Positions 13,052 through 20,019 of a stretch of 20,019 bases of DNA are shown piece after piece. The first letter of the stretch is position 1, and each line of letters begins with the position of its first letter. The notes under the pieces are model-generated. The model worked only from the letters and a program-made list of their open reading frames with translations, ran no database searches and was not told the DNA's origin. This stretch comes from a virus: the UHGV virus genome UHGV-0180141; one strand, written 5' to 3'. Made by a program: the position numbers and the translations under genes.

Positions 13052-15787
13052 ATGGCTAATTACCGTGATTTGTTAGAGCAGGCTGGCGCACGTTACGGTG
13101 TGCCAGAAGGGTTGATGACTGCACTGGGTGCCAAGGAGTCTTCTTACAACCCTGCCGCAGTAAGCTCCGCCGGGGCTGTAGGATTGACTCAGGTCATGCC
13201 TGGGACATGGCGTGATATGGGTTATACCGATGAGCAAATGCAAAACCCCGAATATCAGGCTGACGCTGGCGCGCGCTATCTGGCAAAGATGTACCAGCAG
13301 TTTGGTAACTGGCGTGACGCTCTTCAGGCTTATCACGACGGCCCCGGCAACGTTATGAAGGCAAAGCGTGGTGAATATACGCCAGGACCTGAAGGCCGCG
13401 GTTACGTTGATGATCGCTTTGCTCAATGGGCGGGTGACCCGGTGACAGACTCAACAGTCGAACAGCGCGCCACCTCTGCAAAGGTACATCCTCAGCAAGA
13501 CCCTAACAACCCGTTTGCACAACTGGAAGCACAGTCATCCGAACAAGTATCGGCATCAGGCGTGCAGTCAGACCCAAATAATCCATTTGCTCAGATTGAG
13601 CAGCAGGCAGCCAGTCAGCAGCCACCTCAACCCGTAAGTTCTGTCGCACCGAAACCTGTTCAGCAACAAACAGTTAATCAGGCCAATAATGCACCAACAC
13701 GGGAAGAACCATCATTGATGCAACAAGCTGGTGATTGGCTCACAGGTGGTCAAAGTGCAGGGCAAATTGCAGAGCAGGCTGGTCGTGGTCTGGTAAACAT
13801 ACCATTTGACGTATTGCAGGGTGGCGCAAGTCTGATTAATGCAATCAGCCAGGGGCTTGGTGGCCCCAAGGTTTTGGACGATGTCTATCGTCCAGTAGAT
13901 CGACCGACAGACCCTTATGCGCAAGCTGGAGAGTCAATAGGCGGTTATCTTGTTCCTGGAGCAGGAGTAGCTGGAAACATGGTCATTGGTTCTCTCGCTG
14001 ACGCGGCGAATCAACGGGGTGATTTTGCCGAAAATGCCGCTATTAATGCCGGACTTAACATTGCTACGCATGGCCTGATAAATGGCGTTACCCGTGGTGT
14101 TCGTGGCGCATCAAATATAATTAGTGGCAATAAAACATCTGCACAGAGAGCGACCACTGCGCCAACAGAAACATCACCATTCTCCGGTGATGCCGCTGCA
14201 GCAACAAATCCTGCGGTTCATGCCGCAGAGGCAAGAGCAGCACAAGGTGTACCAATGACGCCTGCGGCGAGGGACCCAGAGGAGGTCGTTCGCACAGTAG
14301 CAGCACAAAAAAGGCCAAATCTCGCTTCATCGCTTGATGAACTAGATATCAATCCTCAGGCTGAAGTTCTGGAGTCTGCTGAAAGGCTTAATGTTGATTC
14401 ATTACTCCCTTCACACTTTTCCGGGAACGAGCAATACAAGGCAGTTGAGCAAGCAATCAAGTCCCGTGCGGGTTCTGCTCTACGGGTGCAGGAAAATGAA
14501 GCAATCAGGCAACTAGCACAGGGCGCGGGGGAGATAATTGATCGCGTTTCCGGTGCAAAAGATGCTCTTGGTATGAGCGACAAGTTTATTGATACGATCA
14601 ATGGAAGAATGTCTGCGCTGATGAAACGAAGCGACCAGCTTTATCGCAATGTTGAAAAGGCGATGCCTGCAGGTGCAAAAATTGATGCGCCATCAACAAG
14701 GTCAATGCTCAAACAGGTGGCAGAAGATCTTGGCGGGATGAAAAACCTTGACCCTATTGAAAAGAGAGTCTTTCGGGCAGTTAATCCAGGCAAGAACGGC
14801 GCATTAACTTATGCAAATCTCAATAAGCAACGACGACTTGTTGGTGATGCACTTCATAAGAAGTCTGGACCATATAAAGATGCTGATCGCGCTGCTTTAT
14901 CGAGGCTTTACGGTTCGCTCGCCGATGATCAAAAGGCGGCGCTGTCAGAGACAAATGCATTACGTGATTTTGAAGTTGCTCAGAGGCTTGTTCAGATGCG
15001 AAAAAGCATGGAAGAGCAAATGATTAATCTAACTGGCAGAACACTGAACGGTGATGTTTCTCGCAAAGCAACTACAGCACTACAGGCAATGTCGAAAGGC
15101 GATGCCAAAGGATTTCGTGAATTGATGCAAAACACGCCGTCCAGGAAGCTAAGAACCGAGCTACTGGGAACAGGTCTTCGGGATATGCTTTCGAACGGAA
15201 AACGTGGCGCTGATTTTAATCCTGCAGGGTTTGCTGACTGGTATCAAAACATGTTAGCAAACGGGCAGATGCGCAATCTTGCCCGACATTTACCAAAAGA
15301 GACTATGTCAGGTCTGAACGATGTATATAAGGTCGCAAAGGCTATCAAAGACGCAAAATCTTACGAGATAACTACAGGAAGACTAAACGAGTTCGTCAAA
15401 CGGTTTAATCGCGTCACTGCGGCAAATGAATTTGTTGCTAACCATGCCCAACGCATTGGCACTGCGGTTGGTTCAACTGTGTCAGGACCGTTCAGTGCAG
15501 TAGGTGCTGTTGCTGGGTCAGAAATTGGGGCAAAAGTCGCCAGCAAAATCAGGGCGATGGGCGGCGCTGAATCAATTGAATCTGCAGAAAAGCTAATTAG
15601 CTCACCAGAATTCCAGAAAGCAGCAAGGCTGGCAGTAAAACAAGCACCAGAAAGCATCGTTGATACAACTGTAAGACGCTCTTCTGCTTGGCGCTCGTTT
15701 TACAACTCACTTCCAGAATCAGATAAGAAAACCATATCAAGGCTAGGCATCATGTACTGGATGAACAGTGATGATAACCAGAAGTAA
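13052..15787 (+). CDS. ejection protein (P22 gp16-like) with N-terminal lytic transglycosylase (SLT) domain
   Basis: 911 aa. N-terminal ~110 aa carries SLT-like motifs ([10 protein letters not shown] with candidate catalytic Glu, [19 protein letters not shown]); then a Q/P-rich linker with a tandem DPNNPFAQ(L/I)E repeat, then a long helical/Ala-Gly-rich body. Last gene of the plus-strand string, start abutting the gp20-like stop. Confidence 0.85.
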
Positions 15788-15975: not shown

Positions 15976-16461
15976 TTATCTAATGTTGCTGCTACTGTTG
16001 CATGTGACGGTATTTCCAAATCCTGAATTGCAGTTTGTATATGTGTCAACGCGCGTTGGGTAAGGTTGAGTTATAACAGGCTGGCGCGCTTTTTGCTCGA
16101 TCGCTTGCATTGTGTTTACAGCCTGATAATTCAATAAAGCCTGCTGGAATGCTTGGCTTTGTGCTATTTGTTGGGCTTGTTCTTGGCTTTGTAATTGAAC
16201 ATAAAGATTCTGAAGCTCAAGTCTTGCCTGCGCGTCACTTATCTTGCCATCATCGACACCTTGCCCGAGCATCTTCGCAGCAAGGACATATAACTTAGGT
16301 GTTGGTGCTGATGCCATGCGTGAGTCGTTCTTCACACTGGCATCAAGGCAATTAGCCATATCGCTAAGCTTTGGATAGCGTTGCTCGCAACTTGCCTGAT
16401 AGTCGCTTACTTTTGCGCACCCAGCCAGCAGAAGCGGGATAATTAACAGTGATTTTTTCAT
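15976..16461 (-). CDS. predicted lipoprotein (161 aa) of unknown function; possible superinfection-exclusion moron
   Basis: Start chosen at internal ATG (rc of 16459-16461) giving MKKSLLIIPLLLAGC..., a signal peptide with lipobox LAGC; strong RBS TAAGGAGAG 8 nt upstream. Mature part is Q-rich/helical with a Cys-containing C-terminus. The track ORF extends 17 codons upstream to 16512 without an RBS. Confidence 0.72.
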   Translation of the reverse strand: MKKSLLIIPLLLAGCAKVSDYQASCEQRYPKLSDMANCLDASVKNDSRMASAPTPKLYVLAAKMLGQGVDDGKISDAQARLELQNLYVQLQSQEQAQQIAQSQAFQQALLNYQAVNTMQAIEQKARQPVITQPYPTRVDTYTNCNSGFGNTVTCNSSSNIR

Positions 16462-16495
16462 ATAATTAACTCTCCTTAGTTTTGCGCAGGATACC

Positions 16496-16861
16496 ATGAA
16501 AAAAGTTAACATTGGAAACGTACCAAAGATGCTCGTTCCGCTCTTTGAGAGCGGTACAATTGTGTTTTGTAGAGACTTTCCAGAATGGCAACGCCTGCAT
16601 CAAAAACTTGGCGTTGACGTGCATGACTCGGACGCCAACGGAGCGTCTCATACAATGAGCAGCGAGAATGGTGTTTTGCATGTGATAGGCGTGTTCAATG
16701 GCAAACTATCTACTATTGCCCATGAGTGCGCTCACATGGCATTCGATATCTGCTCAAGGGTCGGCGTTGATGTTGAACCAGGAAGAGCCAACGAGACTTA
16801 CTGCTACTTAATGAGCAGGCTTGTTGAGTTCTGCGAGCGACATATCAAAAAGCCGGAGTGA
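16496..16861 (+). CDS. small HExxH-motif protein (121 aa), putative ImmA/IrrE-like zinc metallopeptidase
   Basis: Contains ...VLHVIGVFNGKLSTIAHECAHMAFD..., fitting the (F/T)(I/L)AHE..H pattern of M78/ImmA-type peptidases, with candidate third ligands (Glu/Asp) downstream. AGGA 5 nt upstream of ATG; divergent from the lipoprotein gene with only 34 bp between start codons. Confidence 0.6.
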   Translation: MKKVNIGNVPKMLVPLFESGTIVFCRDFPEWQRLHQKLGVDVHDSDANGASHTMSSENGVLHVIGVFNGKLSTIAHECAHMAFDICSRVGVDVEPGRANETYCYLMSRLVEFCERHIKKPE

Positions 16862-16872
16862 CCCGGCTTGAT
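16851..16872. terminator. putative bidirectional terminator between convergent genes
   Basis: Hairpin AGCCGG-agtgac-CCGGCT (16851-16868) with T-rich sequence on both strands; overlaps the stop codon of the HExxH gene. Confidence 0.45.
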
Positions 16873-16874
16873 TA

Positions 16875-17054
16875 TTACTTTTTGCTGTCTGGAGTTCGCT
16901 TATCCAATACCCAGCCATGACCTGGCTTTGTTGTTGGTGGAAGCCTTTCATTGTCCTTGACGGTGGCAAAATTGTCTTTCTTACCGCCGCGTGGGCCAAC
17001 TTCTTGGTATATTCCGCCGTTTTTTCCCGTGTTTTCACCTGGTTTTTTCGCCAT
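16875..17054 (-). CDS. hypothetical small Gly/Lys-rich protein (59 aa)
   Basis: Start at internal ATG (rc of 17052-17054) giving MAKKPGENTGKNGGIYQEVGPRGGKKDNFATVKDNERLPPTTKPGHGWVLDKRTPDSKK, with RBS GAGGT 6 nt upstream; terminator hairpin downstream; candidate sigma70 -35 TTGACT (rc of 17114-17119) upstream. Confidence 0.45.
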   Translation of the reverse strand: MAKKPGENTGKNGGIYQEVGPRGGKKDNFATVKDNERLPPTTKPGHGWVLDKRTPDSKK

Positions 17055-17144
17055 GATATACCTCAACATGCACCCGTTATTGGGCGATTAAATATTGATC
17101 TCATTTTATAAGTAGTCAATATGGCCCAGGTAAATGCAAAAATT

Positions 17145-17168
17145 AACCCACCGTCAGGTGGGTTTTTT
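17145..17168. terminator. putative bidirectional rho-independent terminator at the 3' end of the mnt-like gene
   Basis: Hairpin AACCCACC-gtca-GGTGGGTT (17145-17164) followed by TTTTTT on the plus strand and by TTAATTTTTGCATTT on the minus strand; the mnt-like stop codon lies in the loop. Confidence 0.55.
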
Positions 17169-17474
17169 GTTTAGCAGTTCTCTCAACTTTTCGTTCTGCT
17201 CTCTGAACTTTTCCTGTATTTCTTTTTGCATGGCGATAACCTGGGCTTGAAGTTGAACTAGCGCATCAACATTTAGCGGAACCGAGACGCTGTTGATTTT
17301 GTCTGCTATTTCCCCAAGAGTATTTTCTGCATTCAAGGCATCTTCCAGTATCTGCACAATCTCTGAGTTCATAGAGCGCCCGTTTCGTTTGGCTCTCTCC
17401 GCAATCGCGTCCCTCATCCCGTCAGGGAAACGCACAACAAACTTTTCGTAATCTTTAACCTGCTTTTCAGCCAT
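17154..17474 (-). CDS. mnt: Mnt-like ribbon-helix-helix repressor (106 aa)
   Basis: N-terminus KFVVRFPDGMRDAIAERAKRNGRSMNSEIVQILEDAL matches the Arc/Mnt RHH fold signature (NGRS(M/V)NSE); helical C-terminal extension; GAGGTG RBS 5 nt upstream; divergent from the arc-like gene as in P22 immI. Confidence 0.8.
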   Translation of the reverse strand: MAEKQVKDYEKFVVRFPDGMRDAIAERAKRNGRSMNSEIVQILEDALNAENTLGEIADKINSVSVPLNVDALVQLQAQVIAMQKEIQEKFREQNEKLRELLNKKPT

Positions 17475-17493
17475 AACATCACCTCAAAAAAAA

Positions 17494-17556
17494 CAATGAT
17501 GGCATATTGCTATTTATATTCAATGATGGCATATTGCTTTCAAGGCATAATGCCAT
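17494..17556. promoter_or_regulatory. candidate immI operator/promoter region (Pant/Pmnt with Arc/Mnt operator repeats)
   Basis: Perfect 18-bp direct repeat CAATGATGGCATATTGCT at 17494-17511 and 17521-17538 (27-bp period), plus inverted element GGCAT-a-ATGCC at 17544-17554 sharing the ATGGCAT core; candidate -10 CATAAT (17546-17551) for the rightward arc-ant promoter and TTGAAA/AATATA-like elements on the minus strand for mnt. Confidence 0.5.
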
Positions 17557-17576
17557 TACGTAAAAAGGAGTGATCA

Positions 17577-17738
17577 ATGGAAAAGAATGAAGTGAAGACA
17601 ACTCTTCGGTATCCGTACCGTTTTAAGGAGGAGGTGAAACGCATCGCTAAGGAAGAGGGGATGTCAGAAAACTCAGTGTTGGTTCAGGGACTTGCTTGGT
17701 GGTTGAAGTACCGGGAGAAAATGCGGAATGCTCTCTAA
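17577..17738 (+). CDS. arc: Arc-like ribbon-helix-helix repressor (53 aa)
   Basis: Hand translation MEKNEVKTTLRYPYRFKEEVKRIAKEEGMSENSVLVQGLAWWLKYREKMRNAL; 53 aa as in P22 Arc, with an RHH-like beta-strand/helix pattern; AAAGGAG RBS 6 nt upstream; directly upstream of ant. Below the ORF-track size cutoff. Confidence 0.72.
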   Translation: MEKNEVKTTLRYPYRFKEEVKRIAKEEGMSENSVLVQGLAWWLKYREKMRNAL

Positions 17739-17809
17739 AAATAACGAAGCCCCGACAGCGGGAACTGGCGAGGCTTCTACATCAACAAATCTGATCGGGA
17801 AATATTGAC

Positions 17810-18688
17810 ATGAAAAGTATAGCAAAGGCACAAAACGATTTCACCATCTTCAAATTCGGCGACAGTGAAATCCGCGTCATCAACAAGTGCGGTGAGCCGT
17901 GGTTTGTAGCAAAAGATGTTTGTGATGCTTTAACTCTGACTAACTCACGCAAGGCGCTTACTGCACTTGATGACGATGAGAAGGGAGTAACTTTAAGTTA
18001 CACCCTTGGTGGTGAGCAGAATTTAAGCATTGTGAGCGAATCAGGTATGTATACATTGGTTCTGCGCTGCCGCGATGCAGTCAATAAAGGTTCAGTCCCG
18101 CACAAATTCCGCAAGTGGGTAACAGCAGAAGTTCTGCCTTCAATTCGCAAACATGGCGAGTATGTAAAAGGAAAGAAAACCACTGTTGAGGAAAGAACAC
18201 CGCTACGAGATGCAGTAAACATGCTGGTAGGAAAGAAAGGACTTCGCTATGACGATGCATACAATATGGTTCATCAGCGTTTTGGTATTGACAGCATTGA
18301 TGAACTTTCAATTGAACAAATCCCGCTGGCCGTAGAGTACATCCACAGGGTAGTGCTTGAAGGTGAGTTCATTGGCAAACAAGAGAAGAAAACCAACGAG
18401 CTTTCTGCAAAAGAAGCAAACAGCCTTGTATGGCTATGGGATTATGCCAACCGCTCACAGGCATTATTCCGCGAATTGTATTCGGCGCTAAAACAAATTC
18501 AATCGAACTATTCCGGCAGATGCTACGACTACGGTCATGAATTCTCGTATGTTATCGGAATGGCGAGAGACGTTTTAATCAATCACACACGAGATGTTGA
18601 TATTAATGAGCCAGACGGACCAACGAATCTTTCCGCATGGATGAGACTTAAGAATAAAGAATTACCTCCTTCAGTACATAACTACTGA
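17810..18688 (+). CDS. ant: antirepressor Ant (BRO-N/KilA-N-type N-terminal domain)
   Basis: 292 aa (P22 Ant about 300); N-terminal [18 protein letters not shown]...[10 protein letters not shown]...[17 protein letters not shown] is the Bro-N/antirepressor signature; follows arc. Confidence 0.85.
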
Positions 18689-18786: not shown

Positions 18787-20019
18787 ATGACAGACATTAC
18801 AGCTAATGTGATTGTATCGATGCCTTCGCAACTCTTCACTATGGCGCGTTCTTTTAAAGCCGTAGCCAATGGCAAAATTTATATCGGTAAAATTGATACT
18901 GACCCGGTAAATCCTGAAAACCAGATTCCGGTTTATGTAGAGAACGAAGACGGTTCTCACGTTCCTGTTTCTCAACCAATCATTATTAACGCTGCTGGTT
19001 ACCCGGTATATAACGGACAGATTGCCAAGTTCGTTACTGTACAGGGCCATTCTATGGCTGTTTACGATGCGTATGGGGCACAGCAGTTTTATTTTCCAAA
19101 TGTGCTGAAGTATGATCCGGATCAGCTAAGACATGAGCTAGCGTCGGAAGCGGGAACAACTTTAATAGGGAAGGGTGATCGAACTCTTGAAGAGTACTTA
19201 GAATCAAGCAAGGAAGATTTTGATAACTCATGGAAGAGATATGTAGGTAAATCTACAACGACACAAAAAGATAGCGCATACTCTGGAGCAGCTCACTACC
19301 AACCAGTTAGCGATGATGGGAGCACAATTGGTAATTATACATTTGAATCACCGGTGATTGTTGACTTCTCATCTACATCAGATTGTGTTATGCCAGATTC
19401 TGGTGTCGTTTTCAAAATGGGAGCTAATGGACTTACAAGTGGTAATTATTTTTCTCAAGATAATTACCACTTAAAAAATGTAACGGCAATTGGCGGTACC
19501 CCTGAAATTGTTACATTTGAACCATACACAGGATTGACAGCACTAGTAGATGGTGTTCGTATTATAAATAATGGCTCTCCAGACAAGACCGCTATTAATT
19601 TTAAAGGACAGAACTGGTGGCCTACAGTATCTAATAATATATTTAAAGATTATACAGATAAAAGAGGAAATTTTTGCAAGGCAATAGATGACGGAGGAGA
19701 TTCATCTATAAGAAGGAGTGGGAATAGTAGATTGCTTTTCACTGGAAATAAAGTCTACTTTGGTGGGGATGCTCTTGGTGGTACGATGTTGAAAGCCAGC
19801 GCTGTCTTTAATATTATAAAAGATAATGCCTGTGAACACGGAGAGAACGCGATTGTGTTTGAGTACCCATCATCATTCTCAGTTATCGACGGACTTTACA
19901 CAGAATGTTCTTTTGGTGGTGGTAATCAGATAGTAATTGGTGACAAAGAACCTGATCCTAATATTGCAACAATGAATATGATTGGAATAACTATTAAGAA
20001 TGTTTATTTCAATAATCAT
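18787..20019 (+). CDS. tailspike protein (P22 gp9-like head-binding domain plus divergent receptor-binding domain), 3'-truncated by window end
   Basis: N-terminus [50 protein letters not shown]...VLKYDPDQ closely matches the P22 tailspike N-terminal domain as recalled; after about residue 110 the sequence is unrelated and AT-rich; GGAG RBS upstream; no stop before the window end. Confidence 0.9.

Follow-up and report, generated by a model that had tools for sequence, protein, structure and literature searches.

Phage P22 immI, a textbook system for ribbon-helix-helix (RHH) recognition, has two repressors with separate adjacent operators. The stretch that we analyzed (the window, 20,019 nucleotides of UHGV virus genome UHGV-0180141) carries a divergent pair of genes resembling mnt and arc, and the gap between them raises the question of which sequences would act as operators there and which of the two repressors would read them. 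A first-pass annotation had described an 18-bp perfect direct repeat and an inverted half-site in this gap, both overlapping candidate hexamers of the divergent promoters, and had taken them for likely Arc and/or Mnt operators of a specificity unlike that of P22. From the comparisons given below, we consider it fairly probable that this gap, with three AmrZ-type operators, controls a secondary immunity module of the immI type, made up of mnt-like and arc-like genes, ant and a sar-like RNA.

The module and its setting

The gap and the elements around it are listed by position.

17145..17164, no strand assigned: bidirectional terminator-like hairpin, directly downstream of the mnt-like gene
17154..17474, minus strand: Mnt-like repressor gene, 106 aa (Pfam Arc PF03869, 1.6e-19; PHROG 1287/7906)
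17475..17576, no strand assigned: divergent control region, the entire 102-bp intergenic gap, aligned with P22 and relatives
17577..17738, plus strand: Arc-like repressor gene, 53 aa (Pfam Arc, 0.0038; PHROG 582, 1.6e-10)
17742..17808, minus strand: predicted sar-like antisense RNA, facing the arc-ant junction and the start codon of ant
17810..18688, plus strand: antirepressor gene ant, 292 aa (Pfam Bro-N, 5e-20, and P22AR_C, 1e-28; PHROG 245, 1e-111)

The identity given earlier to the two flanking genes agreed with the Pfam, PDB and PHROG profile matches. The Mnt-like protein scored 69.9 bits against PF03869 (cut-off 20.4), and its PDB matches were AmrZ (3QOQ, 6e-9), which is the closest solved relative, and Mnt (1MNT, 3e-6). 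Its N-terminal RHH domain contains the recognition strand K11-F-V13-V-R15, and its C-terminal domain has no sequence relation to the C-terminal domain of P22 Mnt. The Arc-like protein alone reached 17.5 bits against Pfam Arc, a score under the curated cut-off, and a profile built on its family matched Arc structures at 1e-8 to 6e-5. The register of the Arc-like recognition strand is K7-T-T9-L-R11.

By its sequence, the window represents an E. coli prophage of P22-like type. The virion genes are ~96% identical to those of phages APC_JM3.2 and IME10 and 84% identical to those of P22, and seven E. coli chromosomes carry the entire module at 98-100% identity. The module is flanked by a 911-aa injection/transglycosylase (gene-16-like) gene, which ends at 15787, and by the tailspike gene, whose start is at 18787, and so occupies the 'ant moron' slot of the P22-like late operon. 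In P22-like phages (epsilon34, CUS-3, ST64T and others), the ant moron is a highly variable, independently expressed late-operon insert in which homologues of mnt, arc and ant are frequent, and only the P22 version has so far been the subject of functional study (Villafane et al. 2008, PMC2629481). Three genes of unassigned function take up what is left of the moron in the window (15976-17069): at the P22 sieA position, a lipoprotein-like gene that has an LLAGC lipobox (PHROG 6067), then a plus-strand ORF of 121 aa (PHROG 1365) and an ORF of 64 aa (PHROG 3202, with a weak YjzC-like match).

The putative sar-like RNA was recognized by a permissive local search, in which it matched the full Rfam model RF00262 (sar, positions 1-68) with 28.5 bits, under the gathering score of 43, and E = 0.0011; a search of the whole window at the gathering threshold of Rfam gave no matches. 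The region aligns with the P22 arc-ant spacer. It has a promoter-like site at 17844..17816(-) and a terminator at 17766..17748(-), and its fold energy is -26.5 kcal/mol (z = -4.8).

Three sites in the gap and the candidate promoters around them

Three operator-like sites were located in the gap.

17494..17511, plus strand: repeat copy 1, whose operator core is site 1, GGC-ATATT-GCT, 17501-17511
17521..17538, plus strand: repeat copy 2, whose operator core is site 2, GGC-ATATT-GCT, 17528-17538
17544..17554, no strand assigned: site 3, a candidate palindromic operator, GGC-ATAAT-GCC; extended form AAGGCATAATGCCAT, 17542-17556

The 18-mer CAATGATGGCATATTGCT is present in two exact copies with a start-to-start spacing of 27, just as the first-pass annotation had reported. 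No further match to it with up to 3 mismatches was found in the 20-kb window, and in the shuffle control the mean number of matches was 0.02, with two matches in 0 of 100 shuffles. Each 18-mer is made up of a 7-bp left flank and a complete but imperfect candidate operator. The third, inverted element was confirmed as such; comparison with a solved RHH-DNA complex indicates that it is a complete GGC-N5-GCC operator and not the half-site for which it had been taken. Site 3, GGCATAATGCC, is a perfect 11-bp palindrome, the only one among the three sites, and on the reverse strand it reads ATGGCATTATGC, a match to the repeat core ATGGCATATTGC. The general pattern GGCWWWWWGCY had 7 strand-matches at 5 loci of the window, and 3 of these 5 loci are in the gap; the mean for shuffled sequences was 1.13, and 7 matches were reached in 0 of 100 shuffles.

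The window holds a fourth GGC-N5-GCC palindrome, CAAGGCAATTAGCCAT, at 16344-16359, with the same flanks as site 3. A role of this palindrome as a distal operator was considered and discarded: it sits inside the lipoprotein-like gene (15976-16461, minus strand), and it is kept, in VSe13 with a synonymous change in the linker, in phages Gally, 720R6 and VSe13, all three of which have a P22-type Mnt. It is therefore probably a coding coincidence.

The solved complex is that of AmrZ. The recognition strands of the Mnt-like protein and AmrZ (DKFVVRLPEGMRE and EKFVVRFPDGMRD, respectively) have K-F-V-V-R in common, and K11, V13 and R15 of the window align with K18, V20 and R22 of AmrZ. In the AmrZ-DNA structure these three residues of each dimer read a 5'-GGC half-site (PDB 3QOQ; PMC3325190). 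AmrZ was found on amrZ1, GGC-AAAAC-GCC, as a dimer of dimers over inverted half-sites, with the 5-bp A/T-rich linker uncontacted, and either a GGC-to-GTC change or a G/C-rich linker lowered the affinity by ~7- to 10-fold (PMC3325190). The AmrZ motif from ChIP-seq is GCC with A/T flanks (PMC3946381). This architecture of half-sites and linker suggests that each repeat contains a full operator rather than a half-site. Site 3 is probably the strongest of the three operators, and the 3QOQ structure, taken together with Arc and Mnt, points to dimer-of-dimers binding at each operator. We dropped an 8-bp tandem (MetJ-like) reading of the sites, because the AmrZ reading has a solved precedent with the same recognition strand.

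Three promoter assignments were considered in the gap.

17507..17535, plus strand: Pant-like promoter, predicted; -35 TTGCTA (17507-17512), 17-nt spacer, -10 CATATT (17530-17535)
17496..17523, minus strand: leftward mnt promoter, best candidate; -35 TTGAAT (17523-17518), 16-nt spacer, -10 CATCAT (17501-17496) with TGn
17543-17516, minus strand: leftward mnt promoter, P22-like alternative; TTGAAA (17543-17538), 16 nt, GAATAT (17521-17516)

In the predicted rightward promoter, the -35 TTGCTA is supplied by site 1 and the -10 by site 2, where a TGG precedes CATATT and makes it an extended -10, TGGCATATT. The 27-bp period of the repeat could thus be explained by the promoter taking the -35-like TTGCT of copy 1 and the -10-like CATATT of copy 2. 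The start was predicted near 17542, so that site 3 would span about +3 to +13 of the predicted transcript. A consensus promoter scanner run over the gap found no promoter above threshold, since the Pant-like hexamers match only 8 of the 12 consensus positions; they were placed by a looser custom scan and by positional homology to P22. The corresponding hexamers in relatives are TTGCCA/CATTAT and TTGACT/TAAATT. Of the overlap with both divergent promoters that had been claimed, the part concerning the rightward Pant-like promoter is well supported by this positional homology. The leftward part did not hold up to the same extent: conservation of the two mnt promoter candidates across types was only partial and convincing for neither, and the assignment is uncertain, with an mnt start that would fall at 17489 or 17509. 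We also noted that the operator copies all read as extended -10 mimics, at 17500-17508 and 17527-17535 on the plus strand (TGGCATATT) and at 17555-17547 on the minus strand (TGGCATTAT), which suggests that competition between RNA polymerase and the repressors could take place at each of the three sites, beyond the promoter in use.

The region aligned with P22 immI element for element, and the P22 operator sequences were absent from it. The control region of P22 reads TTGACA, 17 nt, TATATT, 6 nt and AGGTCCACGGTGGACCT (Omnt), with Oarc inside the -35/-10 spacer, and that of the window reads TTGCTA, 17 nt, CATATT, 7 nt and AAGGCATAATGCCAT. The centre of site 3 is 14 nt past the -10, and the centre of P22 Omnt is 15 nt past it. 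Neither Omnt nor Oarc (ATGATAGAAGCACTCTACTAT) had a match at up to 3 mismatches, and this absence would place the module outside the P22 immunity specificity. The divergent specificity proposed in the first-pass annotation is thus supported, and the DNA-facing residues of the repressors differ as well.

Co-variation of the sites with the two repressors

We compared 16 distinct intergenic sequences, taken from IMG/VR contigs and other genera, whose Mnt strand is KFV[VL]RF (the V-type set). Site 1 was invariant in 16 of 16. The linker of site 2 was ATATT, ATTAT or ATTCT, and one sequence had a G-to-A change in a half-site; at site 3 only the linker varied (ATAAT, AAAAT, AAAGT). The promoter spacer and the outer flanks were variable across the set. 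When other Mnt strands were included, the sites were as follows.

KFVVRF: GGC..GCT/GCC
KFTVRF: GGCAACTTGAC, GGTAAATTGAC, GGCAATTTGCC
KFNLRF / KFNVRF: GCCATATTGCC, GGCATTATGGC
KFMxRF: GTCACNGTGAC; ATCACATTGAC, GTCACAGTGAC, GTCACCGTGAC
RFNIRL: ACCAANTTGGT; ACCAACTTGAC, ACCAAGTTGGT
P22-like: P22-like CCCCACGGTGGGG

The conserved blocks, the alignment with P22 immI and the co-variation with the Mnt-like strand all favour the earlier view that these elements are Arc and/or Mnt operators. The co-variation itself rests on ~6 independent types and is partly confounded by linkage, as sites 1 and 2 adjoin the 5' end of mnt.

The same comparisons bear on how the sites would be shared out. If labour were divided as in P22, site 3 would serve the Mnt-like protein only and the direct repeats the Arc-like protein. 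The positions are suggestive, since Omnt of P22 lies past the -10 and Oarc between the -35 and the -10, and so is the form of the sites, with a palindrome at site 3 and another right half, common to both, at sites 1 and 2. In comparisons at constant Mnt type, however, sites 1 and 2 were unchanged between Arc types A and B (L075 group and GF-2 vs Stx phages), and the element that changed with the Arc type in the Stx phages was site 3 (GGCATTATGGC to GTCACTTTGGC). The latter change is a point for such a division, and it makes an Arc contribution at site 3 possible. Conversely, where one and the same Arc type occurs with three Mnt types (window, L001 and GF-2), all three sites follow the Mnt strand, site 3 as much as the direct repeats, and the loci with Arc type A have only GGC-type sites in common. 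We regard a P22-like division of labour as unlikely on these grounds, though it is the foremost alternative to our reading.

It is quite improbable that the repeats are mainly promoter elements, namely duplicated hexamers or tandem or competing promoters conserved for RNA polymerase. Each copy does contain the extended -10-like TGGCATATT and the -35-like TTGCT, and the reverse strand of site 3 reads TGGCATTAT. Yet the invariant GGC and GC(Y) triplets include bases outside the hexamers in use (in site 1 the GGC, in site 2 the GCT, for example), the linker within the -10 of site 2 varies, and in the other types the sites shift with the repressor strand while the hexamers stay near consensus. In some other phages it is LexA, not Mnt or Arc, that controls the antirepressor gene, but we give very little credence to the sites belonging to another regulator (the primary repressor, LexA or a host factor) or being a functionless recent duplication, since inspection of the region by eye revealed no LexA-box-like CTGT-N8-ACAG, the repeat is conserved across genera, and the trio of sites travels with mnt-arc into lambdoid Stx phages, myovirus-like prophages and GF-2.

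If the three sites are AmrZ-type operators that follow the Mnt-like strand, the question is then where the Arc-like protein would act. A separate Arc operator was sought by comparing loci that have the same Arc type and different Mnt proteins, and only GGC-type sites were shared; for Arc types B and C likewise, no Arc-specific motif was shared across the loci compared. A single site family in three copies was detectable in the gap, whereas a P22-type region is expected to have two different operators. In the Arc-like protein the residues are K-T-R, nearly isosteric with K-V-R in the Mnt-like one; Mnt proteins of the KFTVRF type have exactly this K-T-R, and the third site of that type reads GGC-AATTT-GCC. 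In L080, L118, L121 (KFMLRL) and L144 (QYIVRF), both divergent RHH proteins have the same strand. Given the matched residues and the lack of an Arc-specific motif, it is simplest to assume one set of operators for both repressors, and during infection the Arc-like protein probably acts on these operators and not on a distinct Oarc. In the same four loci and in L140, the strands are the same or nearly so and the gap has two or three copies of one palindrome family.

The Mnt proteins are mosaic. Those of the window, L001, L002 and L045 have an identical C-terminal part and different N-terminal arms and strands. At the DNA level, the segment of about 17380-17650 (the 5' ends of mnt and arc with the operators between them) was 50-80% identical to L001, L002 and L045, and its boundaries were sharp: the 3' two-thirds of mnt (17170-17350) and the arc-ant junction (17740 onward) are ~100% identical to modules of other specificity types. 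The divergent segment looks like an exchangeable specificity cassette. We therefore offer, tentatively, a wider interpretation in which a single operator family is common to both repressors, which would compete for it with matched or near-matched strands, and in which new immunity types would arise by a swap of the cassette; the cassette would then take in the opening 15-30 codons or so of mnt, all three operators and the 5' end of arc. If this possibility is true, the immI type of a module could be told directly from its half-site triplets and its K-x-[V/T/N/M]-x-R strand.

The same module family was found in unrelated backbones. It is located among the tail genes of lambdoid Stx phages (L004, phage 2851), adjoins baseplate and spike genes in the E. 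coli myovirus-like prophages L001/L002, and is carried by Edwardsiella phage GF-2 (L003). In several Stx phage records the mnt gene is without annotation. In GF-2 (L003 1617-1716) and the L075 group, 17 bp of the second operator, GGTGGCATTATGGCCTT, recur exactly as the third, with a 19-bp period, which points to recombination followed by a tandem duplication that regenerated the third site. L117 and L123, from an assembly labelled Chryseobacterium sp. 18061, have enterobacterial-type mnt-arc modules, and the operators of L117 are identical to the window type; these two may represent contamination or a mislabelled assembly.

A proposed switch and its comparison with known systems

In the switch that we propose, each operator would consist of two 3-bp half-sites (GGC/GCC or the weaker GGC/GCT) around a 5-bp A/T linker. 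By analogy with AmrZ, an RHH dimer of dimers would occupy each operator, with the beta-ribbon K-x-V-x-R of each dimer on one GGC half-site and the linker uncontacted. The spacing between sites 2 and 3 is 16, 17, 19 or 20 bp depending on the type, so no fixed cooperative geometry can be claimed. In P22, Pant is repressed by Mnt in the lysogen, and during infection Arc turns off both Pant and Pmnt. In a lysogen of the window type, the Mnt-like protein would fill site 3 and then sites 2 and 1, keeping the Pant-like promoter, and hence ant, off. Autoregulation of mnt is probable, as its promoter would be interleaved with sites 1 and 2. Upon infection, arc and ant would be transcribed until the Arc-like protein closed the same sites, and the sar-like RNA would further limit ant translation. 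The regulated output of the switch would be ant.

The switch appears to be of a known kind with a new operator specificity and layout. In the literature that we searched, we did not find a description of the operator sequence, the AmrZ-type logic or the layout of three like sites. The general understanding of such switches is unchanged in principle. What the locus offers is a candidate operator set for a second immI specificity, with a rationale in the AmrZ pairing of K-V-R with GGC, and a layout that differs from P22 in having three like operators in place of two unlike ones. The pairs of strands and half-sites across the relatives form a natural data set for learning the rules of RHH recognition. 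Since the module family occurs in Shiga-toxin phages, the antirepressor could influence prophage induction there.

The resemblance to P22 extends from the slot between the injection gene and the tailspike gene to the gene order and orientation, with two small RHH repressors, the Pant -35 and -10 at the same positions with a 17-nt spacer, site 3 at the position of Omnt, and a predicted sar-like antisense RNA at the arc-ant junction. In contrast to P22, which has one Omnt and one Oarc, the window has three putative operators of one family, and its promoter spacer is free of operators. Towards the DNA, the Mnt-like protein presents K-V-R where P22 Mnt has H-N-R, and the Arc-like protein K-T-R where P22 Arc has Q-N-R; the Pant-like hexamers of the window are weaker.

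Site 3 (GGC-ATAAT-GCC) resembles amrZ1 in having inverted GGC half-sites and a 5-bp linker, and in window-type relatives the half-sites are fixed while the linker is free to vary. Sites 1 and 2 (GGC-ATATT-GCT) differ in that each has one consensus half-site, GCT being off-consensus. AmrZ is a chromosomal global regulator at AlgT-dependent promoters and not a phage immunity repressor. The similarity between the two proteins is confined to the RHH domain (residues 9-53), whereas the C-terminal domain differs, as does the N-terminal arm, an element that has an effect on the specificity of Arc and Mnt. On this comparison, the Mnt-like protein would be AmrZ-like at the DNA and is not an AmrZ orthologue.

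The Stx phages (2851, YYZ-2008 and 1717) and GF-2 have mnt DNA that is 88% identical to that of the window, with the C-terminal two-thirds of the protein identical, and they have the three-site layout with the 27-bp spacing of sites 1 and 2. They differ in the strand (KFNLRF or KFNVRF) and in the sites (GCCATATTGCC, GGCATTATGGC, GTCACTTTGGC), and their cassette is located among tail genes instead of before the tailspike gene; the Stx phages also have another Arc type. Compared with the other ant morons, the region in the window is the same kind of variable late-operon insert with mnt, arc and ant homologues.
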